The notes under the pieces were generated by a model. That model did no database searches and had not been told where the DNA came from. It saw only the letters and a list, made by a program, of their open reading frames with translations. Positions 1-21,158 of a stretch of 25,998 bases of DNA are shown here, piece by piece. A program made the translations under genes and the position numbers. The DNA lies in NCBI GenBank assembly GCA_965656495.1, contig CBFHKU010000016.1:1-25998 (forward strand), read 5' to 3'. This stretch comes from Coraliomargaritaceae bacterium. GTDB taxonomy: Bacteria > Verrucomicrobiota > Verrucomicrobiia > Opitutales > Coraliomargaritaceae. Each line of letters begins with the position of its first letter. The first letter of the stretch is position 1.

Positions 1-430
1 TGGTTGGAGCGATTAACGAGTTGGATAAAGGTCTCGATGACGAGGCTGCCGCCCGGCAAGCGGTCGATGGGGTGCTTGCTGATTTAAAGACCACCGAGCA
101 GGGTACTTTGGTTGGAGCGATTAACGAGTTGGATAAAGGTCTCGATGACGAGGCTGCCGCCCGGCAAGCGGTCGATGGGGTGCTTACTGATTTAACCACC
201 ACCGAGCAGAATACTTTGGTTGGAGCGATTAACGAGTTGGATAAAGGTCTCGATGACGAGGCTGCCGCCCGTACTGCTGCCAACAATGCGATCCGCACTG
301 ATTTTGCTGCTGCTGATACGACTCTCCAGACGAGCATCAATAATGAAGCTGCCGCCCGGCAAGCGGCGGACGGTAATCTTGCTGATTTAACCACCACCGA
401 GCAGGGTACTTTGGTTGGAGCAATTAATGA
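1..430 (+). repeat. 108-bp (36-aa) coding tandem repeat in the adhesin stalk
   Basis: TGGTTGGAGCGATTAACGAG starts at 1, 109 and 217; third copy is partial (to ~270); a diverged partial copy lies at ~348-430. Unit LDKGLDDEAAARQAVDGVLxDLxTTEQxTLVGAINE. Confidence 0.95.
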
Positions 431-740
431 GGTTCATGCTGCTTCCGCGATGAACAGCGCAACGAATCAAAGACTCGAATCCCGAATCAATACCAACAGT
501 GGCCACATCAGCCGCAATACCCGAGGTATCGCGATGGTAGCAGCACTCACTCACACCACTATTCTTCCTGGTATGACCCATGCCCTGGACATCAGCGCTT
601 CACACTTCGAAGATGAAACCGGAATGGCACTCAGCTACTCCCGTCGCGTCAGCGAAGGGGTACAGGTCAACTTCGGTGCTGCATCCACAACTGACTTTGA
701 AGAGGCTGTGGTGCGTGCCGGCATCGGTTTTCAATGGTAG
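1..740 (+). CDS. Trimeric autotransporter adhesin (YadA-like), C-terminal part; 5' end lies outside the window
   Basis: Frame is open from the window edge (VGAINELD from nt 3). Repetitive coiled-coil stalk, then RGIAMVAAL helix and four amphipathic strands ending AGIGFQW, as in the YadA membrane anchor. Confidence 0.85.
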   Translation, partial: VGAINELDKGLDDEAAARQAVDGVLADLKTTEQGTLVGAINELDKGLDDEAAARQAVDGVLTDLTTTEQNTLVGAINELDKGLDDEAAARTAANNAIRTDFAAADTTLQTSINNEAAARQAADGNLADLTTTEQGTLVGAINEVHAASAMNSATNQRLESRINTNSGHISRNTRGIAMVAALTHTTILPGMTHALDISASHFEDETGMALSYSRRVSEGVQVNFGAASTTDFEEAVVRAGIGFQW

Positions 741-4261: not shown

Positions 4262-4306
4262 CCATGGGTTGTGCCTCTGGCATCTAACCTGAACTTAAAA
4301 TCAACA

Positions 4307-5569
4307 ATGACTATATTATCGAAATCAATAAAAAGACTTACGGCGGGTGCGGCCGCGTTCCTTCTCCTTGGAACTTTAAGTGCTCGTGCTGACGAAACTG
4401 TTAAAGTTGGCATTCTTCACTCGCTGAGTGGAACGATGGCTATCTCTGAAACCTCGCTTCGCGATGTGCTCCTTTTCACGTTTGACGAGATCAATGCGAA
4501 CGGGGGTGTGCTCGGCAAGATGATTGAACCGGTCGAAGCGGACGGTGCCTCGGATTGGCCAACCTTCGCGGAAAAAGCGGAACAACTCCTTGCGGTTGAT
4601 AAAACTGCGGCAGTTTTCGGTTGCTGGACTTCGGTGAGCCGCAAGTTCGTGCTCCCGGTGTTCGAAAAATACAAGGGCCTGCTTTTCTATCCGGTGCAAT
4701 ATGAGGGTGAAGAGGAATCACCCAATATTTTCTACACTGCGGAAGCGGTTGGACAGCAGGCGATCCCTGCAGTGGATTATTTGCTGGAAGAGGGCTACAC
4801 GAAGTTCTACCTCATCGGTACGGACTACGTTTACCCGCAGACCACCAACATCGTGCTGTTTGAATACCTCCTCTCAAAGGGTATTCCGGTTGAAAACATC
4901 GGGGGCGGCATCCGTTATGAAGGTGATGTCGCGGTTTCCGCGGGTAATTACACACCGTTTGGACACACCGATTTCCAACAGATCGTCGCTGAGATCAAGG
5001 ACTTCGCCGCTTCGGGTGATGCCTGTGTCATCAACACCATTAACGGTGATGCCAACGTTCCTTTCTTCAAGGAAATCGCGGCTTCCGGTCTGACTTCTGA
5101 GGACTGCCCGATTGTTTCCTTTTCCCTCTCGGAGGATGAATTCCGCAGCCTGCCCACCAAGGACTTGGTCGGCCACCTCGGTTGCTGGACTTACTTCATG
5201 TCAATTGATAGCGATGCCAACAAGGCCTTCAAAGCCAACTTCCAGGAATGGCTCGCCACGAAAGCACCTGCCGCCGTGCAAAAGGAAGGTCGTGTGACCT
5301 GCAGCCCGATGGTGCTCTCCTACAATGGCGTATATCTCTGGAAGGCCGCAGTTGAAAAAGCAGGCACCTTCGATCCCGAAGCGGTGATCAAGGCGCTTGA
5401 GGGCGGCATCTCCTTCGATGGTCCCGGCGGAACGGTGACCACTCAGAAGAACCACCACCTTACTAAGAGTGTCTACATTGGGGAGACGCTGGAAGACGGA
5501 CAGTTCGACATCCTTGAGGTTATACCGGACGTCTATGGCGAGCCTTGGCTGAAAGGTACTTTTAAGTAA
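4307..5569 (+). CDS. urtA: Urea ABC transporter substrate-binding protein
   Basis: Signal peptide, then [30 protein letters not shown] and [14 protein letters not shown] 4307 preferred over GTG 4271. Confidence 0.95.
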
Positions 5570-5610
5570 GACAGCTTAGCTTTTACAAGTGTAGTTGTAG
5601 TTTTGCTTGT

Positions 5611-5644
5611 TGGGCTTGTGGGGTGGTTCCCACAAGCCCACTTT
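5611..5644 (+). terminator. Intercistronic stem-loop between urtA and urtB (weak terminator or mRNA stabiliser)
   Basis: TGGGCTTGTGGG-GTGGTT-CCCACAAGCCCA, a 12-bp perfect stem followed only by CTTT. Confidence 0.65.
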
Positions 5645-5728
5645 GCAAATGAAGGGGCCCAATTTTTTCGGGCAAATTTGATTGTGCACAGAATCTGCTA
5701 AGCGAGTTGTGTGCCTACCGCAAACTTC

Positions 5729-7372
5729 ATGAATTTAATAAAACGATCGATCCTGACAGTTGCGTGTCTGGCTTGCACGGGCCTCTCGCTCCGCGCGGAG
5801 GCCACCGCCAGTGCCCGCGAAGTATTTGCCGATTTGATTCTTGCCGCGCCGGAGGAACAGGTCGTCTGGGTGGAGGTGCTGAGCGGTTACGGCGATCCCG
5901 TGATCTCAGAAATCTATGCCGCATGGCGGGCGGGCGGAATTTATACATTAGAGAGCGGGGGCAGTCTGCGTTTACTCGAGTTGGATGGTGAACAGGAGTG
6001 GACGGCGGTGCGCACCGGCGAGGCGGTGCAATTGACCGAAGCGGAGGCGAGCAGCGCCACCAAGAATCGACCCTCCCGGAAGTTGCGCAAAGTGATGAAG
6101 GGTTTGATCGACACCCTCGGTTTGAAGGCGCCGGATGCGGCGACACGGATCGACTCTGCGATTAAGATGGGCCGCAGTCAAAAGAGCGAATACCTCGAGC
6201 CCCTGCGCCAACGGCTTGAGGTAGAGAGCGATGCAAAGGTGCAGGCGGCATTGCGGGAAGCGTTGGCAATCAGCCTTTTAGAGAATGGCGACCCCGGCGA
6301 AGTGCTCGCGGCGGTGGGGGAATTGGCGGCGATGAAATCCATTCCCGCAAAAGATTTTATTGACAAAATATTGGCGAAGGAGACTGCGGGGGAGGGCAAT
6401 GAAACGGAATTAAGTCAGGCCTGCACCCAAGCGCTCGTAACGATTGAACGTCACATTAAGACGATCGAATTTTACGGTAGTTTTTTTCGCGGGTTCAGCA
6501 CGGGGTCGGTGCTCCTGATTGTATCCTTCGGGCTCGCTATTACGTTCGGTTTGATGGGCGTCATCAACATGGCGCACGGGGAATTTGTGGCAATCGGTGG
6601 TTACGTGACCTTTATGGTGCAACGGGCATTCGCGGATGTATGGGGTGCGGGGAGTGCCGCGTTTGAATGGTATTTTGTGGTGGCTTTACCGGTCAGTTTT
6701 CTGGTGGCGGCGTTGCTGGGGCTCCTGCTGGAAAAATCGGTGATACGATTTCTCTATCGCCGTCCGCTGGAATCCCTGCTCTGCACTTGGGGGATTTCGA
6801 TGGTCATGCAACAAGCCTTTCGTCTGATTTTTGGGGCGGCGAATGTACAGGTGAACAATCCCAACTGGCTGATGGGCAACCTCACTTTCGGCGGCTTTAA
6901 TATGAGCTTCACGCGACTCTTTGTGCTGCTCTTGGCGCTTCTGGTGGTTTTCCTGACCTGGCTCTTGTTGCGAAAGACAAATCTGGGCCTGCACATTCGC
7001 GCGGTCATGCAAAACCGTGAGATGGCAAGCGGACTCGGTATTCCGGTAGCCCGCGTGAATTCCCTAACCTTTGCGCTGGGTTGCGGGCTCGCCGCGCTTG
7101 GCGGTGCGGCGCTTTCACAGATCGGGAATGTCGGGCCGCTCATGGGGCAAGCCTACATCGTCGATAGTTTCATGGTGGTGGTGATCGGCAGCGTCGGGAA
7201 TCTCCTTGGCGCGGGTCTGTCCGCGATGGGGATCGGTTTGGTCGACCAACTCCTGCAGCCCTCGCTCGGTCCGGTCATGGGCAAGATAACGGTCTTTGCC
7301 GTGATCATTCTCTTTTTGCAATGGCGGCCCGGGGGAATTTTCCCGACCCGTTCCCGCAGTCTTGAAGATTAA
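5729..7372 (+). CDS. urtB: Urea ABC transporter permease with N-terminal periplasmic helical domain
   Basis: [44 protein letters not shown] and [10 protein letters not shown]. Alternative start GTG 5711. Confidence 0.93.
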
Positions 7373-7392
7373 AACCGACCCGGATTTCAGCC

Positions 7393-8511
7393 ATGCTCAA
7401 GCGCGAAAATACCAACGAATTTGTCATTCTGGCACTGATCACGGGGCTCTTGATGCTGGTGCCGCTCCTCAATGCCTGGGGGCCGGCGGAGGGGATTTTA
7501 TCGGTGAATTCCTTTCAGGTTTCCCTCTATGGTAAATATCTGACCTACGCGGTGCTCGCGATGAGCCTGAACCTGCTTTGGGGCTACACGGGGCTCCTGT
7601 GTTTATGCCAGAGTTTATTTTTCGCGCTGGGCGCCTATATGATGGGGATGTATCTCATGCTCATGATTGGGGAGCGCGGCGCCTACCAGAGTGTGCTTCC
7701 GGACTTCATGGTTTTCCTCGGTTATCAGGATTTGCCGCTGCACTGGAAACCCTTCTACAGTTTTTGGTTTGCGAGTGGGGCGGTCCTTTGGGTGCCCGGA
7801 CTCCTCGCGCTGATCTTTGGTTTCCTCGCTTTCCGTTCCCGCATCAAAGGGGTGTATTTCTCGATTCTCACACAGGCGCTGACCTACGCCGCCTGCCTGA
7901 TGTTTTTCCGCAATGACTTCACCTTTGGCGGCAATAACGGCTTCACCGATTTCAAAGATATACTTGGGTTTGATCTGAATGCGGACGGCACGATCCGGGG
8001 CCTCTTCATTGCGACCGTGATCCTTTTGGTGCTGACCTATCTGAGCACGACCTTCCTCCTGAAATCGAAGTTTGGAAAGATCCAGCAGGCGATCCGGGAT
8101 TCTGAAAATCGCGTCCGTTTTTCGGGTTACTCGACGACCTCCTACAAGTTAATGATCTTTGTTTTTTCCGCGATGCTTGCCGGCGCGGCGGGGGCTCTCT
8201 ATGTCCCGCAGGTCGGAGGGGTGAACCCCAGCGCGATGGAGGCGGCGAAGTCGCTGGAAGTCGTGGTATGGGTTGCAGTTGGGGGACGCGGCACCAAGTG
8301 GGGCCCCGTGATCGGGGCGGTGCTGGTTAATTTCCTCAAGAGCTATACCACACAGGCTTTTCCGGATTATTGGCTCATCATCATGGGGGGTCTCTTTGTG
8401 ATGGTGGTGCTCTTTTTCCCCGATGGCGTGATGGGGCTCGTGCGCGATGCCCGCGCCGCCCTCAAAAAACGTAGCGCCGCTACCCAAATCGAATCTACTG
8501 AAAATGTCTAA
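7393..8511 (+). CDS. urtC: Urea ABC transporter permease
   Basis: [48 protein letters not shown] and WVAVGGRGT. Confidence 0.95.
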
Positions 8512-9316
8512 TCCCGCCGCACCATTACACCGTGATACACCCCTGATCCTTTCGGTCTCGGGGGTCACCAAATCCTTCGATGGTTTCAAGGCGATTGACG
8601 ACCTCAATTTCTATTTGGAAGAAGGGGAACTGCGGACCGTGATCGGCCCCAATGGCGCCGGTAAAAGTACCTTTATGGATATTCTGACAGGACGCACCCG
8701 CCCCGATGCGGGTAGCGTTATCTTTCACGAGCAGAATGGCCGCGATTACAACCTCGCCAAACTGCGCGAGTTTGAAATCAACCGCCTGGGAATCGGGCGG
8801 AAGTTCCAAACCCCCAGTATTTATAAATCCCACACCGTTTACGACAATCTCGTGCTGTCCCTCGATCATCCCCGTGGGGTGCTGGCGGCGTTGCGCTACC
8901 GTGAATCCGCGAGCGATCGCGAACGCATCATGGAGGTGCTGCAGTTGATCCGACTCGAGAACCGGAAAGACGAATTGGCGGGTTCGCTCTCCCACGGACA
9001 GAAGCAATGGCTGGAAATCGGCATGCTCCTCGCGCAAAACCCCCGCATCCTCCTGATTGATGAACCCGCTGCCGGGATGAGCGACGAGGAGACCGAGCGC
9101 ACCGGGGAACTCCTCCTCAGCCTCGAGAAAAAACACAGCCTCGTCGTTATCGAGCACGATATGGAATTCATCCGCCAAATCGCCCGCAAGGTCACGGTCC
9201 TGCACCAGGGCCATGTCCTGAAAGACGGCTCCTTTGAGAGTGTCAAAAGCGACCCCCGCGTCATCGAGGTTTACCTCGGTCGGCAGGGTAAACAAACCGC
9301 CCAAGCAAATGATTAA
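8504..9316 (+). CDS. urtD: Urea ABC transporter ATP-binding protein
   Basis: Walker [34 protein letters not shown] and IEHDM. ATG 8504 overlaps the urtC end. Confidence 0.95.
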
Positions 9317-9322
9317 GTGAGT

Positions 9323-10048
9323 ATGACCGACACCGCCATCCCTTCCACGCCTCTGCTTTCGGTCGAGGACCTCAGCGCAAGCTACGATGAATCGTTGATC
9401 CTGCGGGGGATTTCGATGGAGGTTCCGCGCGATTCGGTGGTGGCGCTCTTGGGGCGCAACGGGGTGGGGAAGACCACCCTTCTGCGCAGTATCATGGGGC
9501 TTTTGCCGCAGGCTCAGGGGTCCATCAACTTCGACGGTGCGGCGATTGAAAATTTGCGGGCCGACCAACGGGTGCGCCTCGGGATGGGATATGTTCCGCA
9601 AGGGCGGGATATTTTTCCCAATCTCACGGTGGAGGAAAACCTCAAGGTAAGCCTGAGTATTTCAGGGGCGGTCGGCGCGGAACGTTTGGATCAAGTCTAT
9701 GAACTCTTTCCGGTGCTCAAGGATATGCTTGCCCGGAAGGGCGGGGTGCTTTCCGGCGGGCAACAACAACAGCTCGCCATCGGGCGCGCCCTCCTCACCA
9801 ATCCCCGCCTCCTCATTCTGGACGAGCCCACCGAGGGCATTCAGCCGTCCATCATCGATCAAATCGAAGACGCCATTCATACCCTGAAGAATGAAGGCGA
9901 TCTCAGTATAATTCTCGTAGAGCAGTATTTGGATTTTGCCAAAGCGGCGAGCGATACTTTTTATATTTTAGAACGTGGAGCGGTGGTTCAATCCGGCGCT
10001 TCCGAATCCCTATCAACTGGCCTTATCGAACAATACCTTACGGTTTAA
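9323..10048 (+). CDS. urtE: Urea ABC transporter ATP-binding protein
   Basis: GRNGVGKTT, GYVPQGRDIF, LSGGQQQQLAIGRAL and DEPTEGIQPSII. Alternative start GTG 9317. Confidence 0.95.
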   Translation: MTDTAIPSTPLLSVEDLSASYDESLILRGISMEVPRDSVVALLGRNGVGKTTLLRSIMGLLPQAQGSINFDGAAIENLRADQRVRLGMGYVPQGRDIFPNLTVEENLKVSLSISGAVGAERLDQVYELFPVLKDMLARKGGVLSGGQQQQLAIGRALLTNPRLLILDEPTEGIQPSIIDQIEDAIHTLKNEGDLSIILVEQYLDFAKAASDTFYILERGAVVQSGASESLSTGLIEQYLTV

Positions 10049-10054
10049 ACCCTC

Positions 10055-10357
10055 ATGCACCTTACCCCACGAGAACAGGAAAAACTGATGGTCGTAGTGG
10101 CGGCTGACCTCGCGCGCCGCCGCTTGAATCGCGGCGTCAAACTCAACCATCCCGAGGCCGTTGCCCTCATTACCTATGAAATTATGGAGGGGATTCGCGA
10201 CGGGCGCAGCGTCGCGGATTTGATGAGCTACGGCACCACCATCCTGCAACGCTCCGATGTCATGGAAGGAATCCCGGAAATGATTCACGAAGTTCAGGTC
10301 GAAGGCACCTTCCCTGACGGCACCAAACTCGTCACCGTTCACAATCCCATCCGATGA
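10055..10357 (+). CDS. ureA: Urease gamma subunit
   Basis: [11 protein letters not shown]...GVKLNHPEA...[15 protein letters not shown]; 100 aa. Confidence 0.98.
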
Positions 10358-10671
10358 TCCCCGGCGAATACAAGTACTCCGATCCCGAAGCCCGCCTCTC
10401 CGGAAATACCGGGCTTGAAACCCGCACCGTGGCGGTGACGCATTCCGGGGATCGTCCCGTGCAGGTAGGCAGTCATTTTCATTTTTATGAAGTGAACGAA
10501 GCGCTGGAATTTGACCGCGCTGCGGCACGGGGGTTTCGTTTGAACATCGCCGCGGGAACCGCGGTGCGCTTTGAGCCGGGTGATCAGCGTGAGGTGGAAC
10601 TGGTGGCGCTCGCCGGCACCCGTGAAGTCTATGGCCTCAATAACAAAATCGACGCGCCGCTCGATTCCTGA
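10354..10671 (+). CDS. ureB: Urease beta subunit
   Basis: MIPGE...[17 protein letters not shown]...[13 protein letters not shown] overlap with ureA. Confidence 0.98.
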
Positions 10672-10694
10672 ACTTTTAAAAACGACCCTAAGCT

Positions 10695-12428
10695 ATGAGC
10701 CTCGAATTTACCCGCCGTCAATACGCTGAAATGTTTGGTCCCACTGTAGGCGACCAAGTCCGACTCGCCGATACCGAGCTTTTTATTGAAGTGGAACGCG
10801 ACCTCATCGCGGAGTCCGGCGGTTACGGCAACGAGGTGAAATTTGGCGGCGGCAAAGTCATTCGCGACGGAATGGGGCAATCGCCGCTCGCGCAGGGCGC
10901 GGACTCGCTGGATCTCGTCATCACCAATGCCACCATCATCGATCCGGTGCTGGGAGTCATCAAGGCCGACATCGGGGTGAAAGACGGGCGCATCGCGGGC
11001 GTGGGGCATGCCGGCAATCCCCTGATACAATCCGGTATCAGTGAAGGGATGGTGATCGGCGCGGGCACGGAAGTCATCGCGGGGGAGGGTCATATCGTGA
11101 CGGCCGGTGGTTTTGATTCCCACATTCATTTTATTTGTCCCCAACAAATTGAGGAAGCGCTCGCGAGCGGGGTGACGACCATGACGGGGGGCGGGACCGG
11201 TCCGGCGACCGGAACGAATGCCACCACCTGTACCCCCGGCGCCTGGAACATCGCCAAAATGCTGGAGGCCGCGGAAGCCTTTCCCATGAACCTGGGTTTT
11301 ATGGGCAAGGGCAACGCCTCCAATCACGAGGCCCTCCGCGAGCAGGTGCGGGCGGGTGCGATGGGTCTCAAACTCCATGAAGACTGGGGCACCACTCCGA
11401 GCGCCATCGACCACTGCCTCAGCGTCGCCGACGAACTCGATATACAGGTCGCGATTCACACCGACACCCTCAACGAATCCGGCTTTGTGGAAACGACCAT
11501 CGCGGCGTTTAAAGACCGGGTCATCCACACCTTCCACTCGGAGGGCGCCGGGGGCGGACATGCTCCCGATATTATGAAGGTCTGCAGTCTCCCGAATGTC
11601 CTGCCATCCTCAACCAATCCCACCCGGCCCTTTACCGTCAATACCATCGACGAGCACCTCGACATGCTCATGGTATGCCACCACCTCGACTCCAGAATTC
11701 CCGAGGATGTCGCTTTTGCGGAATCCCGCATCCGCCCGCAAACCATTGCGGCGGAGGACATCCTCCATGACCGCGGCGCGATTTCGATCATGTCCAGCGA
11801 CAGCCAGGCGATGGGTCGGGTCGGAGAGGTCATCATCCGTACCTGGCAGACCGCCGATAAAATGAAGCGCCAGTTCGGGAAGTTGGAATCTGACGCGCAT
11901 CCCGCTGCCGACAATTTCCGGGTCCTGCGTTACATTGCAAAATACACCCTCAATCCCGCGATCGCCTGTGGTTGCGCTGCGGAAGTTGGGAGCCTGGAAG
12001 TCGGGAAGCTCGCCGACCTCGTGCTCTTCAAGCCGGCGCTCTTTGGAGTGAAGCCGGAGCTCGTCCTGAAGGGCGGCTTCATTGCGCTCGCCAATATGGG
12101 CGATCCCAACGCTTCCATCCCGACGCCGCAGCCGATGTTCTACCGTCCGCAGTTTGGATCTTTTGGGAAGGCCACCGCGCGCACCGCCATTACTTTCCTC
12201 AGCCAAGCGGCGCTCGATGCCGGAATCGGGGAGCAACTCGGTCTCGAAAAAATCCTGCGCCCGGTGCAAAACACCCGCACCATTTCCAAACACGATATGT
12301 TGCTGAACGATGCCTTGCCCGAGATTGAGATCGATCCCGAAACCTACACGGTGCGTGCCGACGGCGAAATCCTCACCTGCGAACCGGCAACGGTGCTTCC
12401 CATGGCGCAACGCTATTTTCTCTTCTAA
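10695..12428 (+). CDS. ureC: Urease alpha (catalytic, Ni-binding) subunit
   Basis: [60 protein letters not shown], ending PMAQRYFLF. Confidence 0.99.
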
Positions 12429-12442
12429 AAATCCCTCTCCCC

Positions 12443-12901
12443 ATGTTGCACATCACCGAAGCCTTGTCTCCCGTCCCCGAGGGAACCCGCGTGAGCGTGT
12501 GTGTCGACCGTCACCAGTTGGCGCGTCGTCGTTGGCGCGGCACCGCCGAGGACGGAACGGAGTTTGGGATCGATGTAGTTGAGGCGCTCCGTCATGGCGA
12601 TGCGATTCATGCCTGCGGGGATAAAGTTTACTGTATTGAACAAAGCGCCGAGGGTTGTTGCCTCGTGCCCCTCAAGCAAGCGCCGGACGCTGCCCATCTC
12701 GGTTGGCGGATTGGCAACCTCCATTTTAAGGCGGCTTTCTCGGAGGAGGGGATTCTTGTCTCTGACGATTCGGCGGTGGTGCAGATGCTCGAGCGCGAGG
12801 GGATTCCCTTCACGCGGGTGCAACGTATTTTTCAACCGGCCCGGCAGGGGGGCCATTCTCACCACCATGACCACGCGCACGCGCATGAGCACGAGCACTG
12901 A
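12443..12901 (+). CDS. ureE: Urease accessory Ni metallochaperone
   Basis: RRRWRG, LRHGD, GWRIGNLH motif and C-terminal tail [15 protein letters not shown]. Confidence 0.92.
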   Translation: MLHITEALSPVPEGTRVSVCVDRHQLARRRWRGTAEDGTEFGIDVVEALRHGDAIHACGDKVYCIEQSAEGCCLVPLKQAPDAAHLGWRIGNLHFKAAFSEEGILVSDDSAVVQMLEREGIPFTRVQRIFQPARQGGHSHHHDHAHAHEHEH

Positions 12902-13613
12902 GACAGCGCCACTGCAGGGTGATGCCGATTGGGTGCCTGCCCTGCTTCAGATCAGTGACCCGCTCTTTCCCACCGGTGCCTACGCCCATTCGATGGGCTT
13001 GGAGGAATGGGCGGCGACCTGTGGCTACCGGGACGCCGAAGATTTAATGGCTTTTTTTCGCAACCATGCCGGGCCGGCGCTCGCCGCTTGGGAATTGCCC
13101 TACCTGCGCTTTACCCGCAGCGCCCTTGCTGCTTCCTCCGGTTTGGATGCGGTGCTGGAAATTGAGGCGGAAGTCGATGCGTTTAAATGGGCGGCAGAAA
13201 TCCGAGAGGCGAGCATTGCGCAGGGTCGGGGGCGCTTGCGTCTCCTGCAGAAGCTCTGGCCCGGCGATGCGGCCCTCGCCGCTTACAAGACCGCCTTTGC
13301 GGAGGGTCGCGCCCGAGGGCACCACCTCGTGGTCTCGGCCTATCAATTTGAATTACTCCAAGTTCCGCTCCGCGCGGGGCTGATGGCATACGCGTACCAA
13401 AGCCTCGCAAATTTTGTCTCGGCCTCGGTGAAACTCCTGCGCATCAGTCCGGAGTCCGCGCAAGTGGCGCTCCGCGATGGATTGGAGCGTTTGCCTGCCT
13501 GGGTGGATGCCGCTCTGGAGGTTGAACGCGCCGAAGCGGGTTGGTTTGCGCCCGCCTTCGATATTGCCGCAGCGCGTCATGCCTCTAGTTTTTCACGACT
13601 CTTTATATCCTGA
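12885..13613 (+). CDS. ureF: Urease accessory protein
   Basis: [21 protein letters not shown], ending SRLFIS; ATG 12885 overlaps the ureE tail. Confidence 0.93.
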
Positions 13614-13626
13614 AATCTGCTTAACT

Positions 13627-14256
13627 ATGACTGAAAAAACTCCCATTCGTCCCGTCCGTGTCGGTATCGGTGGCCCGGTTGGTTCCGGAAAAACGATGCT
13701 GCTCCTGCGCCTCATCGAGGTTCTCAAAGACCGTTACTCGCTGGTCGCGATCACCAATGATATTTATACGAAGGAAGACGAGCAATTCCTCGTGCGCAAC
13801 AGCGTCCTCGAAGCGAGCCGTATTTTGGGTGTCGAAACAGGAGGCTGTCCACATACTGCGATCCGTGACGACACCAGCATCAACGAAGTGGCGGTGGAGG
13901 ATTTGCTCCAACGGCATCCCGATACACAGGTGGTGCTCATGGAAAGTGGCGGCGATAACCTCTCCGCAACCTTCTCGCCCGATTTGGTGGACACCTTCAT
14001 CTACATCATCGACGTCGCGGAGGGTGATAAAATTCCCCGCAAGGGCGGGCCTGCGATTCGTTACTCCGATCTCCTCATCATCAACAAGACCGAACTGGCG
14101 CCGCACGTCGGGGCCGATCTCGCCGTGATGGAACGGGACTCAAAGGCGATGCGCGGTGAGCGCCCCTTCCTTTTTTGTGACCTTAAATCCTACCAGGGGC
14201 TGGAGGCATTGGTGGAATGGCTCGAGAAAGAAAGCTTCTTTCCGCTCAATTCCTGA
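13627..14256 (+). CDS. ureG: Urease accessory GTPase
   Basis: [48 protein letters not shown] and INKT. Confidence 0.97.
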
Positions 14257-15116
14257 TGCCGGATCCCGGAACAAAGCCCGCCTCGGCACGGGTTGCGGTT
14301 TGCGGCGGAGCGCGTCTGCGATTCGCGACCCGCGATGGGGTCGGGACGCGTCTCTTGGAGCAAAGGGTGCGACCGCCCTTGCACCTTGCAAAAGCATACC
14401 ATGAAAACGACTGGGCGATCAGTCTCTTGACGAGTCCAACCGCAGGGCTATTGGAAGGGGATGCCCTGAATATCGATACCGAGCTTGGGCCCGGTTCCCG
14501 CGCCGCCCTCATCAGTCCGGCGGCGTGTCGCGTTCACACCATGACCGATGGGGTCGCGCGTATTCAGCAAAAATATTCCCTCGCGGCAGGCTCCGCCCTC
14601 GATGTTTGGCCCGCCCCCCTCGTGCTGCAAAAAGACGCGGCCCTCCATCAGGAAACCGAGATTGATTGTGCCGCCGATGCGACCCTGTTTTTTACCGAGA
14701 TCCTTGCGCCCGGTCGCGCCGCCCACGGCGAATCCTTTCAATTCCGGGAATGGCGATCCCGCCTCCGCCTCCGCCGCGCCGGTCAACTCGTGGCATTTGA
14801 AAATTTCCGTTGTTCCCCCGAAGCGGGTGAGCCCGCGGATTGGCGGCAACATTATCCCCAAGGCCTCTACGCCAGCATCTACTATTTGAGCCCCCAGTCA
14901 TACGGAACCTCGGTGGAAGCCTTGCACCAGCTCGACATTGCAGAGGCGACCATCGGCGCGAGCCCGCTCCGCGAAGGCGGAATCGCCATCAAGATTTTAG
15001 CAGCGAGCGGCATCCAATTGCGGCGCAGCATTTTAGCGGTTCGTGAGCTGCTTATCCCGCAAACCGGTCTGGGCTTCCCGCCCGCACTGCAACGCGCCCA
15101 GACTTTTTTCTACTAG
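14256..15116 (+). CDS. ureD: Urease accessory protein UreD/UreH
   Basis: PPLHL, SPTAGLLEGD, EILAPGRAAHGESF; TGATG coupling to ureG; last gene of the operon. Confidence 0.88.
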   Translation: MPDPGTKPASARVAVCGGARLRFATRDGVGTRLLEQRVRPPLHLAKAYHENDWAISLLTSPTAGLLEGDALNIDTELGPGSRAALISPAACRVHTMTDGVARIQQKYSLAAGSALDVWPAPLVLQKDAALHQETEIDCAADATLFFTEILAPGRAAHGESFQFREWRSRLRLRRAGQLVAFENFRCSPEAGEPADWRQHYPQGLYASIYYLSPQSYGTSVEALHQLDIAEATIGASPLREGGIAIKILAASGIQLRRSILAVRELLIPQTGLGFPPALQRAQTFFY

Positions 15117-15710: not shown

Positions 15711-15852
15711 CTAGGCCTTGCGGTATTTGTGTAGGATTTCGCGGGGGATGTGACAGGGGTCGTCGGGGCAGCGGCTCAAGCGGTTCTGGTGTTCGGGGGC
15801 GCTTTTGAGGTAATGGGTGAGGGGTGCGATTTCGAGGGCGATTTGTGCGGCG
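15711..15852 (-). pseudogene. msrA: Orphan duplicate of the msrA 3' end
   Basis: 15718-15852 matches 17022-17156 over 135 bp with 3 mismatches; TAG stop at the same offset (YRKA* versus YRND*). Confidence 0.93.
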
Positions 15853-16354: not shown

Positions 16355-16579
16355 ATGCAAATAACGGTGACGGAATTCAAGGCAAAGTGTCTGCGCCTCA
16401 TTGATGAGGTCAGTAAGACCGGTTCAGTGCTGGAGATTTCAAAGCATGGCAAGCCAGTGGCGAAAATCGTGCCGATCCAAGCAGAACGACCCTGGGAGCA
16501 ACTGCGTGGTGTGGGTCGTTTCAAGGGCGATGCCATGGCACCGGTAATCTCAAGCGCGGAGATTGAAGCACTGAAGTAA
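16355..16579 (+). CDS. Phd/YefM family antitoxin
   Basis: MQITVTEFKAKCLRLIDEV...ISKHGKPVAKIVP; 74 aa; TAATG overlap with the toxin gene. Confidence 0.92.
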   Translation: MQITVTEFKAKCLRLIDEVSKTGSVLEISKHGKPVAKIVPIQAERPWEQLRGVGRFKGDAMAPVISSAEIEALK

Positions 16580-16983
16580 TGGATGCTCCGCTGCTTGATA
16601 CCCATGTTTGGCTTTGGTGGCTCCTAGGTGATGCACGTCTCGGCGCGCGTGAGGCTGAGTATCTGGACAAGCTGCCAGCGGATAACCGCCCCTATCTTTC
16701 TGATATTAGTTTATGGGAGGCGGCGCTTCTGGTGGATCGTGGGCGCCTGCAATTGGATCAACCGCTGGAAGACTTTCTGGGAATCGCGGGCTCACCAGCC
16801 ACCGTGCAGCTTTGTCGAATCGATCTTGCCACAGTGGTTGAGATGAACGCTCTTCCAGAGAGCTTCCACCGCGACCCCGCAGATCGTATCATTGTCGCGA
16901 CGGCGCGTGCCAGAGGTTTGAAATTGGCCAGTTTCGACCGATTGATTCTCGATTCGCGATTGGCTGAACCCTGGCGTTTGTAA
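16579..16983 (+). CDS. vapC: VapC/PIN-domain toxin
   Basis: LLDTHVWLWW, SDISLWE, HRDPADRIIVATA and SFD. Confidence 0.93.
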   Translation: MDAPLLDTHVWLWWLLGDARLGAREAEYLDKLPADNRPYLSDISLWEAALLVDRGRLQLDQPLEDFLGIAGSPATVQLCRIDLATVVEMNALPESFHRDPADRIIVATARARGLKLASFDRLILDSRLAEPWRL

Positions 16984-17014
16984 GTCCGGTCGCAGCGGGC
17001 TTTGAGTGATTCTG

Positions 17015-17503
17015 CTAATCGTTGCGGTATTTGTGTAGGATTTCGCGGGGGATGTGACAGGGGTCGCCGGGGCAGCGGCTCAAGCGGTCCTGGTGTTCGG
17101 GGGCGCTTTTGAGGTAATGGGTGAGGGGCGCGATTTCGAGGGCGATTTGTGCGGCGTCGGGGCGTGCTGCGATGCAGGCGCGGGCTGCTTCGAGATGGGC
17201 GGGGTCGCGGCTATAGATTCCGGTGCGGTATTTTTTGCCGGTATCGGGGCCCTGCCGGTCGTGGCTGTAGGGGTCGATGATTTCAAAGAGGTATTCGATG
17301 CAATCCGCGACCGTGATTTGATTGGGGTCGAAGGTGATGCGCACGCACTCGGCATAGCCGTCGTAGGGGCCGTCAAGGGTTTGAGTGGTGCCATTGGCGC
17401 GGCCCGCCTCGGTGGCGAGCACCCCGGGGAGATGACGCACGAATTCCTGTACGCCCCAAAGACAGCCGCCCGCTAAAAAGATTTCCTGTGGTGCCTGATC
17501 CAA
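17015..17503 (-). CDS. msrA: Peptide-methionine (S)-S-oxide reductase
   Basis: AGGCLWG (variant of GCFWG), GYAECVRITFD, RQGPDTGKKYRTGIY, APEHQD and CHI; TTG start. Confidence 0.9.
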   Translation of the reverse strand: MDQAPQEIFLAGGCLWGVQEFVRHLPGVLATEAGRANGTTQTLDGPYDGYAECVRITFDPNQITVADCIEYLFEIIDPYSHDRQGPDTGKKYRTGIYSRDPAHLEAARACIAARPDAAQIALEIAPLTHYLKSAPEHQDRLSRCPGDPCHIPREILHKYRND

Positions 17504-17519: not shown

Positions 17520-17552
17520 ATTGTTAACCTAAGAAATAAATCACTTAATAAT
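17520..17552. promoter_or_regulatory. Candidate BirA (biotin repressor) operator
   Basis: ATTGTTAAC-N15-CTTAATAAT versus consensus wwTGTtAAC-N15-GTTaACAww; left arm perfect, right arm 7/9; upstream of a bioP-like operon. Confidence 0.45.
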
Positions 17553-17588
17553 TGAAATTTCGATTTCTTTCATGCAAAAGCTTTAAGC

Positions 17589-19472
17589 ATGACTAGCAAA
17601 ACATCTTTTAAGTCTATTTTCCTTTTCACCTGCGCCCTCGTGGCGGGTTTGAGCGGTGCCGAGCCCGAGACCGCGAATGAGGATTCCGAGATTTATATGC
17701 TGCCGACCCTAACGGTGCGGGGGCAGGAGACTGCGAATGTGCTGCCCGCATCGACCTTTGAATCGGTCGTTTCGAATCTCGATTTTGATCCGCGCATTGA
17801 TTTCCAGTCGCGCAACATGGCGGAGGCGCAGGGGGACGTCAGTATTCGCGGGGGGATTTTTGAGGGCACCGGACTCCAGGTTGGGGCGGCGACCCTGCTG
17901 GATCCGCAGACGGGGCATTACAGCACAGAGTTGCCGATCGCGCCGGAGATGTTGGGTGAGCCCAAAGTGCTTACAGGGGCGGATAACGCCCTTTATGGAT
18001 TCAATAGCACCGCCGGTACGCTATCGTATCAATGGAGTGAAATGACTCCCGGTGGAAGTGTCACCCTCGGCGGCGGTGAGAATCAACTCAACTTTCAACG
18101 TTTACACAGTGCCTGGGTTGAGCCCCTCCACGCTGATGGCAAATGGAAATGGGGTTATGAGGCGGAATATTCCCGTTCTGAAAGTGATGGCACGGCGGAG
18201 TATAGCGATCACGACTTCAGTCGTGTCTCTGTAAGGGTGCAGTTGGTGGGACCTCACTCCCAGACGGATTTATTTGCGGGTTACCAATCGAAGTTCTTTG
18301 GTCAATTCGGGATGTATACCGGGGAGCAATACCTTAGCTATAGCCCTTACGAAACTGAATACATCAAAACACGTTTATTTATTCTAAACCACCAGCAGGA
18401 CTACGCCGAAGGCAGTAAGTGGCAAGCCACTGCCTACTATCGTAAGAATGGCGACCATTACATCTTCAATCGCTTTGCGCCGAACAATACCTTTGTGCAT
18501 GAGACTGAAGTTGGTGCTTTGGGGCTGTCGGGACTCCATGCCCTCGATGCTCCGTTTGCCCTGAATTACAGCCTTCAGCTTACACATGATTCAATTGAAT
18601 CCAATACCTTGGAAGCCGGTAATTTTACGAGTCGCAGCTACTACAAACTGAGCCTGGTGCCGCAATATCGCCACGTTTTGAATGGGCAGCGGGAGCTTCT
18701 TTTCAAAGCGGGACTCTCGGTAGACGACACGAACCGGGATGCCTCGGAGTGGTCACCTATTGCGGAAATTAGCCTTCTCACCGACCGGGGCATGGGCAAA
18801 TCCGAGCGGCTCCACCTGTCCTATGCCAAGACCACTCAAGTTGTAGGCTATGGGGCAATTGGTGGCAGTGAAACCAGCGGACTGTTTCGCAGTAAGCATG
18901 ATTTGCTCCGCGAAACTGCTCAAAATTTGGAACTCGGCTATTCCCTGAATCGACCCCGATGGAGCTTTGATGGCGCTATTTTCTATCGATGGGATAAGGA
19001 TTTAGTGGATTGGACGTATGCGGGGGTGGGGGCACGCTCCGCTGAAAACATGGACCTCGAAACCTTCGGCATCGAGCTGATCGGCTCGAGGCGCTGGGAC
19101 GCGATTGAAGCGATTGCGAGCTATACCTACCTCGACAAGGACGAAAGCTACGGCAACGCAAGCGTTGACGCGAGCTTCTACGCCCTGAACTACGCGAAGC
19201 ATCGCATCACCCTCGGGGCGATCTGGACGCCGAATGAGATCCTTGAGTTGCGGATCGACAACGAGTGGCGCAATCAGGAAGCCAATGCGCTTCGCAGTAG
19301 TGATAATGAAGCGCTCTTCACGCATATCGGCCTTAGTGTTTTCCCGCCCGAGTTCGATAATTTAGAGCTCTTCGCGGCCTACGACAACGCCTGGGATGAC
19401 GACTATCAGGATGTGCCCGGCACCCCCGGCAGAGGGAGTCAGCTTTCCTGCGGTGCGATTTATCGTTGGTAA
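17589..19472 (+). CDS. TonB-dependent outer-membrane receptor
   Basis: Signal peptide, TonB-box-like LPTLTVRG, plug motif QGDVSIRGG...DPQTGH, PGTPGR near the end and terminal YRW. Confidence 0.9.
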   Translation: MTSKTSFKSIFLFTCALVAGLSGAEPETANEDSEIYMLPTLTVRGQETANVLPASTFESVVSNLDFDPRIDFQSRNMAEAQGDVSIRGGIFEGTGLQVGAATLLDPQTGHYSTELPIAPEMLGEPKVLTGADNALYGFNSTAGTLSYQWSEMTPGGSVTLGGGENQLNFQRLHSAWVEPLHADGKWKWGYEAEYSRSESDGTAEYSDHDFSRVSVRVQLVGPHSQTDLFAGYQSKFFGQFGMYTGEQYLSYSPYETEYIKTRLFILNHQQDYAEGSKWQATAYYRKNGDHYIFNRFAPNNTFVHETEVGALGLSGLHALDAPFALNYSLQLTHDSIESNTLEAGNFTSRSYYKLSLVPQYRHVLNGQRELLFKAGLSVDDTNRDASEWSPIAEISLLTDRGMGKSERLHLSYAKTTQVVGYGAIGGSETSGLFRSKHDLLRETAQNLELGYSLNRPRWSFDGAIFYRWDKDLVDWTYAGVGARSAENMDLETFGIELIGSRRWDAIEAIASYTYLDKDESYGNASVDASFYALNYAKHRITLGAIWTPNEILELRIDNEWRNQEANALRSSDNEALFTHIGLSVFPPEFDNLELFAAYDNAWDDDYQDVPGTPGRGSQLSCGAIYRW

Positions 19473-19497
19473 TCCATACTGCGTTTAAGAAGGGACC

Positions 19498-20373
19498 ATG
19501 CACTACCTCGCCATCGTTTCTCTCATTTGGGCTTTTTCCTTTGGCCTGATTGGGAGTGCTTTGACGGGAGTGGATTCCTTTCTCGTCGCGACCCTGCGGT
19601 TGGGTTGCGCGACGCTGGTGTTTCTGCCCTTTTTACGACTGCAATCCATCGACGGAAGGAACGGGCTCCGACTTTTCCTCTATGGCGCGATTCAATTCGG
19701 GCTCATGTATGTCTGCTACATGAAGGCCTATCAATATTTGCCGTCACACCTCGTGGCGCTCTTCTCGATCCTCACTCCGGTCTATGTCGTCCTGATTCAC
19801 GATCTCCGCAGCCGGCAGTTTTCCACGCGCTATCTCCTCGCGGCGTTCCTCTCGGTCGCAGGGGCAGCCGCGATCAAAATACAGGGCGTCCCCACCGGTT
19901 CGATCTGGATTGGGTTCGCCCTCATGCAAGTGGCGGGGCTGTCCTTCGCCTTTGGGCAAGTCGCCTACCGCGATTGGAAGCGCGAGCATCCCGCCGTTCA
20001 CGACCATGCCGTTTTCGCGCTCCTCGCCCTCGGTGGTACCTGCTGTGCCGGACTCTGCAGTTTGTTTTTTGCCAACCCCGAAGCCCTCGCCATCAACCCC
20101 TCCCAATGGCAGGCGATTCTATACCTCGGCTGCATCGCCTCCGGGCTCGGCTTCTTCCTCTGGAACAAAGGCGCCAGCCGCAGTAACCCCGGCACCCTTG
20201 CCGCCTTCAATAACGCCTTAATTCCACTCGCGATGCTCTTTTCCCTCTTCATCTTCGGCGAGATCGAAACGGTCTCCGCTCAGGCCCTGCTCCGCCTCGC
20301 GCTCGGCGGATCCCTCATTGCGGGCGCTGTCATCGTGGCGACGCGGAAGAAAAGCCCACCTGCAACGGGCTGA
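19498..20373 (+). CDS. EamA/DMT transporter, YigM/BioP (biotin transporter)-like
   Basis: About 10 TM segments; IWAFSF, VDSF...LR, LVFLPFLR, GAIQFGLMY, LTPVYVVLIHD, ASGLGFFLWNKGA and GTLAAFNN recall E. coli YigM. Confidence 0.8.
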   Translation: MHYLAIVSLIWAFSFGLIGSALTGVDSFLVATLRLGCATLVFLPFLRLQSIDGRNGLRLFLYGAIQFGLMYVCYMKAYQYLPSHLVALFSILTPVYVVLIHDLRSRQFSTRYLLAAFLSVAGAAAIKIQGVPTGSIWIGFALMQVAGLSFAFGQVAYRDWKREHPAVHDHAVFALLALGGTCCAGLCSLFFANPEALAINPSQWQAILYLGCIASGLGFFLWNKGASRSNPGTLAAFNNALIPLAMLFSLFIFGEIETVSAQALLRLALGGSLIAGAVIVATRKKSPPATG

Positions 20374-20504
20374 ACTTTGGCGGTGGGCGAGTTGCCCGCT
20401 TCGGTTTTGATGCGGTCGTCGGCGGCGATGCGGGCTCTTATTTCAGCGCAGGGGTGTCAAAATAGGCGGCTTGATTTCTTACCAAATATGTGCGAAAGTA
20501 AGGA

Positions 20505-20780
20505 ATGTCAGTTTTGCAAGCCAAAGTCACCTCCAAGGGGCAAGTCACGCTGCCGAAGCAAATCCGGGAATCCCTTTCGATTCGGACCGGGGATCGGCTT
20601 GAGTTTTCACTGGACCCCTCAAACAAGATTTTGATCAGGAAAAAGAAGAAGCCAGGTTCATCGGCAGGGTGTGCAAAGCATCGGATCAGGCCCGGACAAA
20701 AGCCAATTACCGCAGCACAGATGGATGCAGCTATTCAGGATCATATGCGGAAAAAGTATTCACATCTAATTGTAAAGTAA
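20505..20780 (+). CDS. AbrB/MazE/SpoVT family antitoxin
   Basis: AKVTSKGQVTLPKQIRESLSIRTGDRLEF. Confidence 0.92.
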   Translation: MSVLQAKVTSKGQVTLPKQIRESLSIRTGDRLEFSLDPSNKILIRKKKKPGSSAGCAKHRIRPGQKPITAAQMDAAIQDHMRKKYSHLIVK

Positions 20781-21158
20781 GTGATCGCCTTTGATACCAA
20801 TCATTTGCTTCGCCATGTTTTGGATGATGATCCCAAGCAGGGTGCTCATGTTTGTGCGTTGATCGAGTCTGCTGTCGCCGCTGAAGCGCAGATACATCTT
20901 TTAGATTTAGTTTTAATGGAAGCCTGTTGGGTTCTCCAAAGTGTCATGGGGTTGGATCGGGATGGATGGAGTCAAGTCCTGGATGACCTCTTGCAGGATC
21001 CTGTGTTCTGCTTCGATGATTCAAATCGATTGCGGAAAGCCCTGGAAAGATATAGAAAGGGCAGGGCGGGTTTTGATGACTATCTGATCTTGGGTCACTC
21101 CGAGTCCATCGGTGCAAAGCTCGAAACCTTCGACAAAAAGCTCAAAAAGGAGATTTGA
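20781..21158 (+). CDS. vapC: VapC/PIN-domain toxin
   Basis: MIAFDTNHLLR...DDPKQ, VLMEACWVL, AGFDDYLI and TFDKKL; abuts the antitoxin stop. Confidence 0.9.
   Translation: MIAFDTNHLLRHVLDDDPKQGAHVCALIESAVAAEAQIHLLDLVLMEACWVLQSVMGLDRDGWSQVLDDLLQDPVFCFDDSNRLRKALERYRKGRAGFDDYLILGHSESIGAKLETFDKKLKKEI

Follow-up and report, generated by a model that had tools for sequence, protein, structure and literature searches.

We describe here a candidate operon for biotin scavenging, found in a 25,998-nt stretch of DNA (contig CBFHKU010000016.1, referred to below as the window) from the genome of a Coraliomargaritaceae bacterium (GCA_965656495.1). It consists of a gene for a TonB-dependent outer-membrane receptor and a gene for a permease resembling BioP (YigM) of E. 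coli, and it is preceded by a predicted operator of the biotin repressor BirA. It is very likely that the receptor is controlled by BirA, and also that its ligand is a biotin-containing compound of some form. That the two proteins act as a biotin-scavenging operon importing free biotin is likely, and they are probably an undescribed two-membrane scavenging system for scarce biotin. The conservation of the operator, the domains of BirA, the orthology of the permease, auxotrophy by gene content and the fold of the receptor were computed; we infer repression, co-transcription, the ligand and transport. Each component is of a known kind, and the novelty lies in the ligand assignment and in the combination. 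The window genome (G000), that of a marine-type bacterium, has a size of 2.06 Mb and is 99.4% complete, with Opitutales as its nearest named relatives. Other G numbers denote genomes of relatives, and L numbers denote individual loci. The main elements of the locus are as follows.

17520..17552, no strand: predicted BirA operator, an inverted repeat ATTGTTAAC-N15-CTTAATAAT, between the divergent msrA-like and receptor genes
17589..19472, + strand: TonB-dependent outer-membrane receptor of 627 aa, candidate biotin receptor (PF00593 match and predicted fold)
19498..20373, + strand: EamA/DMT permease of 291 aa, candidate inner-membrane biotin importer and predicted BioP (YigM) orthologue (sequence and tree)

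The original prediction, made from the DNA sequence alone, described a BirA-like box upstream of a 627-aa TonB receptor and an EamA permease gene 25 nt downstream of it. The box was located at 17520-17552, 36 nt upstream of the receptor ATG at 17589, and the coordinates of the permease agreed, its ORF beginning 25 nt past the receptor stop codon. The two genes are probably co-transcribed. The right arm of the operator runs into TTGA, which may be the -35 element.

The box proved to be conserved upstream of orthologous receptors. Forty loci of close homologues were taken; removal of L027, L033, L036 and L041, of which three were duplicates and one was truncated, left 36. A site with at most three mismatches to ATTGTTAA...TTAACAAT was present in 29 of the 36 unique upstream regions, compared with 11 of 1080 base shuffles. 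Its spacer was constant within one base, and its distance to the start codon was mostly 32-39 nt. The lineage consensus was ATTGTTAAS-N15/16-STTAACAAT, from which the window box differs by one mismatch, itself a common variant. These results answer the earlier caveat of two right-arm mismatches in AT-rich DNA. In a distant clade named Kiritimatiellia, the arms read TGTAAAC...GTTTACA, the same as in E. coli bioO. The consensus spacer of BirA operators is 14-16 nt. This range is cited second-hand in PMC8449670 (statements from this and all other cited sources refer to the excerpts available). In several Opitutales loci (L182-L184, L186, L030), the right arm abuts the ATG and the match to the consensus is weaker.

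In agreement with a check named in the original prediction, the box recurs both at orthologous receptors and at biotin synthesis genes. An exact-pattern search of 61 genomes revealed the same motif 24-64 nt upstream of bioB or of the first gene of the bio operon in relatives (bioA being named by homology and position). When the 1.5-kb flanks were examined in 20 bioB-positive genomes, a site at the operon or upstream of it was clear in 14 (in G048 by coordinates only), weak in 2 and absent from 4. A matrix was then built from 14 sites at bio operons and applied to G000 and to the orthologous upstream regions. The window site ranked first in G000, with 22.8 bits vs 15.4 bits for the next one. 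Scores of at least 10 bits were obtained in 31 of the 36 receptor upstream regions; among 1586 upstream regions taken as background, 5 did so. The test is not wholly independent, as the training sites were partly found by a receptor-derived pattern, although the fact that they precede biotin genes played no part in their selection. Upstream of the bio operons at L060 and L061 (G028 and G012), two overlapping BirA-like sites were seen at an offset of 16 nt.

The BirA protein of G000 contains an HTH_11 domain (E 1.4e-13) together with BPL and BPL_C domains, so the N-terminal helix-turn-helix (HTH) that control by BirA calls for is in place. Its top NCBIfam matches were models of bifunctional BirA, under their cut-offs. 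Among 65 receptor-positive genomes, BirA was matched from its N-terminus in 49 and over the catalytic domain only in 15, and in one it was cut by a contig end; HTH_11 was found in none of the 12 short frames scanned of these 15. We scored 40 further receptor loci from across the phylum for a site with at most two mismatches to TGTWAAS-N14-17-STTWACA. The box was present upstream of 20 of the 29 receptors from genomes with an HTH-bearing BirA and of none of the 11 with an HTH-less BirA, while 11 of 1500 random windows contained it. Of 20 distant genome loci, 4 have birA as the gene adjacent to the receptor (divergent in G283 and G089, upstream on the same strand in G310 and G261), as do 6 of 80 metagenome loci. 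In family f44, to which the HTH-less genus belongs, the same conserved stretch of 105 nt, with a divergent ilvD gene, is found at all the box-less receptors listed (L163, L167-L170, L173, L175); three of these loci were scanned against Rfam and gave no match.

The permease showed 37% identity over 257 aa to E. coli BioP/YigM (NP_418271; E 2e-51 to 5e-53), and of the ten E. coli EamA proteins compared with it, the second-best gave an E value of 0.006. In a quick tree, E. coli BioP nested among Opitutales permeases with a support of 97, so the permease groups with the YigM clade, as had been anticipated. Its score against TIGR00950 was 165 bits, under the cut-off of 230. These comparisons suggest that the permease is a BioP orthologue and a candidate biotin importer; E. 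coli BioP transports free biotin (PMC4049904). Of 37 unique receptor loci, 17 include the permease gene, and in two sets of receptor genomes it was present in 33 of 39 and in 38 of 48, respectively. BioY exceeded its cut-off in one of 61 relatives and in one of 23 distant receptor genomes; in the latter genome (G147), a BioP-like gene was not found.

The receptor matched the TonB barrel family PF00593 (E 3.6e-9), and its AlphaFold model (mean pLDDT 85) shows a plug and a beta-barrel. It carries a signal peptide, read by eye, and a C-terminal Trp. Its identity to solved TonB receptors is only 10-16%; no NCBIfam model matched it, and no sequence in the PDB did so at E<=1. A search of a plasmid collection gave no match, the E. 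coli K-12 chromosome gave only generic TonB matches (E 4e-12 or weaker), and the ESM Atlas gave only TonB clusters, none of them named. In a FastTree phylogeny, BtuB, CirA, FepA and YncD all fall outside the family, which is a clade of its own. Some 40 positions hardly vary among all three clades of the family; many of them are polar or aromatic, and they may line a ligand pocket. Residues invariant in the family include H110, Y243, R285, D289, Y291, H304, R349, W475 and Y531. A search for two components of the energy-coupling system found three TonB_C and six MotA/ExbB matches in G000, which indicates that TonB and ExbB are present. In G032 (contig C6) and G257 (contig C12), the receptor match is broken into several frames; these are frameshifts or decay, in genomes without bioB.

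The window genome appears to depend on external biotin. In G000, we found no bioB above the cut-off, no orthologue of bioA, bioD or bioF by tblastn, and no BioY. Three ORFs with the biotin-attachment motif also match PF00364; judging from their size, we take them to be AccB, pyruvate carboxylase and a small carrier. Across 301 genomes of the phylum, the receptor was present in 74 and bioB in 173, with both in 6, the receptor only in 68, bioB only in 167 and neither in 60. When one genome per family was taken from 24 other families of the order, the receptor was found in 10, bioB in 8 and both in none. The receptor was present in 26 of 27 genomes of family f23 (Opitutales) and in 9 of 9 genomes of family f44, and bioB in none of the 27 and none of the 9, respectively.

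Several observations weigh against the assignment of a BirA-controlled biotin importer. Nine of the 29 further loci with an HTH-bearing BirA have no good box, and in G008, G020 and G028 the HTH is kept and no good box lies upstream of the receptor. Of the 11 HTH-less loci, 7 belong to one genus, the G300 assignment was made at a contig edge, and those of G053 and G111 possibly reflect frameshifts. The partial dependence of the bio-operon matrix on a receptor-derived pattern, given above, belongs here as well. The permease has no box of its own in any of 30 loci and is frequently separate from the receptor or placed tail-to-tail with it; because it has no box, BirA would control it only by way of the operon, and not in every genome. 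The receptor is absent from 60 of 128 bioB-less genomes, so it is not the sole route to biotin, and Fisher p-values for the near-exclusion of bioB overstate it because related genomes are not independent. Finally, 39 of the 80 metagenome loci group in a clade whose receptors have about 40% identity with that of the window, and which has members named Woeseiaceae and Woeseia oceani. No box with at most two mismatches was found in any of the 37 Woeseiaceae-like loci with upstream DNA; genes for a hydrolase, a GST and a DDAH-like protein surround the receptor there, with no biotin gene nearby. This clade nests inside Opitutales in the FastTree phylogeny, which suggests a transfer of the receptor. 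In the same clade, TGTGGCACA recurs in many of the upstream regions (L282-L332), at a distance of about 45-55 nt from the start codon; it is probably an extended -10 element.

Two further features were annotated at the locus.

20382..20400, + strand: terminator-like hairpin past the permease (consensus scan; weak, as 4 hairpins were found vs 5.0 expected in shuffles)
17015..17503, - strand: divergent msrA paralogue of the PRK05528 type (NF004038 above the cut-off)

The hairpin is consistent with a two-gene operon. A promoter scan gave one match vs 2.1 expected. Two marine RNA runs, in which only 6-8% of the words were present, yielded five short contigs, none of which spans the receptor-permease junction. 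The promoter region of the divergent msrA gene must overlap the operator, and msrA is possibly a passenger. In G000, this paralogue has only a TTG start, and the canonical msrA lies on contig C6. Genes of the same type, with the GCLWG motif, were found in 12 of 61 relatives, all of them receptor-positive, and 9 are divergent from the receptor. A 135-nt stretch at 15717-15851, about 1.3 kb upstream, is 98% identical to the 3' end of msrA (the 16999-17156 region) and is not part of a full gene; it reflects a local duplication or an assembly artefact. PIN-domain toxin-antitoxin modules stand on either side of the operon, at 16579-16983 and 20505-21158 (+ strand). By the look of the translations, 4271-15116 (+ strand) holds a urea ABC transporter and a urease cluster. 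At 3-740 (+ strand), a repetitive ORF runs off the contig start, with a C-terminus that, by eye, resembles an autotransporter anchor. A riboswitch as the regulator was rejected, since the sole Rfam match in the window was 5_ureB_sRNA at 10859-11157, inside the ORF of the urease large subunit (ureC), and no riboswitch was found in 35 homologous loci.

The receptor might be controlled by BirA and take up a biotin derivative, such as biocytin, a biotinyl peptide or biotin sulfoxide, in place of free biotin. We consider this unlikely, with a small but real chance of being correct. Ligands of TonB receptors are often larger than biotin. In addition, the stretch examined contains an M3 peptidase gene, usually adjacent to the receptor gene, in 14 of the 20 Opitutales loci, a different M3 peptidase follows the receptor in G147, and the msrA paralogue is divergent from the receptor in nine genomes. 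However, the M3 enzyme has no signal peptide by eye, is encoded by a single copy elsewhere in G000 and stands in conserved housekeeping synteny, and it was treated as such. The msrA gene has no clear box where it stands apart from the receptor, which leaves its proposed role as a biotin sulfoxide reductase unsupported, and free biotin is what BioP carries (PMC4049904). An even less probable option is that the BirA-controlled receptor imports another nutrient tied to biotin status, or several vitamins. Some published BirA regulons do contain genes other than biotin genes (such as fabF and acpP; PMC5343134), and the box-less clade, apparently Woeseiaceae, keeps the invariant residues of the family, but the near-exclusion of bioB, the pairing with BioP and the repeated adjacency of birA would then be left unexplained.

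Structural similarity and database names point to a BtuB-like receptor for vitamin B12, with the box belonging to something else, and also count against a biotin receptor: BtuB chains top the structural comparison (Z 30.8, rmsd 3.1, 553 residues aligned), and several homologues carry the name 'vitamin B12 transporter' at JGI and NCBI. Yet the receptor has 12-15% identity with BtuB, FhuA is tied with the latter in the structural comparison (Z 30.4), and the family is a separate clade. Another receptor of G000 (C1:84981-86270) falls nearer to BtuB in a tree that carries a long-branch warning. A cobalamin riboswitch is absent from the window and the 35 homologous loci, a test that is weaker for G000 itself, which has no such riboswitch anywhere. 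Uptake of vitamin B12 is thus very improbable. The original prediction had left the choice between biotin and a precursor; the former is supported by the BirA box, the BioP-like permease and the near-exclusion of bioB, and the latter is contradicted by the gene content of G000. Lacking bioB, bioA, bioD and bioF, this organism cannot finish desthiobiotin or earlier intermediates, and 68 of the 74 receptor genomes have no bioB and cannot use a precursor. As a precursor is useless without BioB, the ligand should carry the finished ring. Desthiobiotin does occur in seawater (PMC9561691), bioB is kept in 6 of 39 receptor genomes, and precursor uptake may be possible as a side activity; in the three bioB-positive receptor genomes examined further (G004, G006, G020), bioA, bioD and bioF lie beside bioB. 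We give desthiobiotin or an earlier precursor as the true ligand only the slightest credence. The last alternative, a chance match of the box within an AT-rich promoter, can be regarded as refuted: the intergenic stretch is indeed 71% AT, but the arms are conserved, the spacer and position are fixed, and the box also occurs at bio operons and is lost where BirA has no HTH.

We return to free biotin as the likely ligand. The proposed operon would act in a cell that cannot synthesize biotin, although its biotin-carrier proteins require the vitamin. At low biotin levels, BirA would leave the operator, and the receptor and permease would be transcribed. The receptor would bind free biotin at the cell surface, TonB-ExbBD would pull it into the periplasm, and the BioP-like permease would carry it on to the cytoplasm, where BirA would attach it to carboxylases. 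Surplus biotinyl-AMP would bring a BirA dimer onto the operator and shut the operon, by the mechanism established for E. coli BirA (PMC6391492). Biotin concentrations in seawater range from <1.2 to 700 pM (PMC9561691), and at such levels it would be worthwhile to transport biotin actively through the outer membrane.

The known prokaryotic biotin importers, BioY and YigM, are inner-membrane proteins (PMC6593275, PMC4049904). Our full-text literature search found no TonB-dependent biotin receptor; most subscription papers were outside its scope, as were RegPrecise and Rodionov 2002, which could contain an earlier prediction. The excerpts of PMC9123166, PMC3400609, PMC12448291, PMC8449670 and bioRxiv 2023.03.17.533168 contain none either. 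It seems reasonably likely that the family is a dedicated TonB-energised biotin importer across Opitutales and Kiritimatiellia that was passed to marine Woeseiaceae, and that its acquisition let whole families drop biotin synthesis and live on picomolar biotin. If this is true, biotin joins the vitamins with a known active outer-membrane route, and the widespread annotation as 'vitamin B12 transporter' would be corrected. The receptor is a testable candidate for the capture of picomolar biotin by Gram-negative auxotrophs, in the culturable genera Coraliomargarita and Lentimonas, and a candidate marker gene for biotin scavenging or limitation in marine metagenomes and transcriptomes. It is also relevant to the entry of biotin-tagged cargo into Gram-negative cells.

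The system can be compared with several known ones. As in the bioO/BirA system of E. coli, the regulator is a Group II BirA with an N-terminal HTH, and the arms TGTAAAC...GTTTACA of bioO are near-identical to the operator arms found here; the spacer is 18 nt in bioO and 15-17 nt here. The yigM gene is a BirA target in three genomes (Leyn et al. 2016, PMC5343134), and the list of 19 target genes in the supplement of that work, in the part available, includes no outer-membrane receptor. In contrast to the regulons described there, the site in the window would control uptake genes only, in an auxotroph. E. coli BioP belongs to the same EamA/DMT family and clade as the permease described here, to which it is 37% identical. 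BioP/YigM of gut bacteria occurs mostly in prototrophs (PMC6593275), whereas here it occurs in auxotrophs and is coupled to an outer-membrane receptor; the same source and its supplements, as far as available, list BioY/N/M and YigM only for biotin uptake. The BioY/BioMNY ECF systems likewise serve biotin salvage in auxotrophs and employ an unrelated inner-membrane protein. The best structural matches of the receptor, BtuB (B12) and PqqU (PQQ), share with it the compact plug-and-barrel form and the principle of importing a scarce cofactor actively. It differs from BtuB in sequence (12-15% identity, separate clade), and from both in that a protein repressor would take the place of a riboswitch and a secondary permease that of an ABC transporter.

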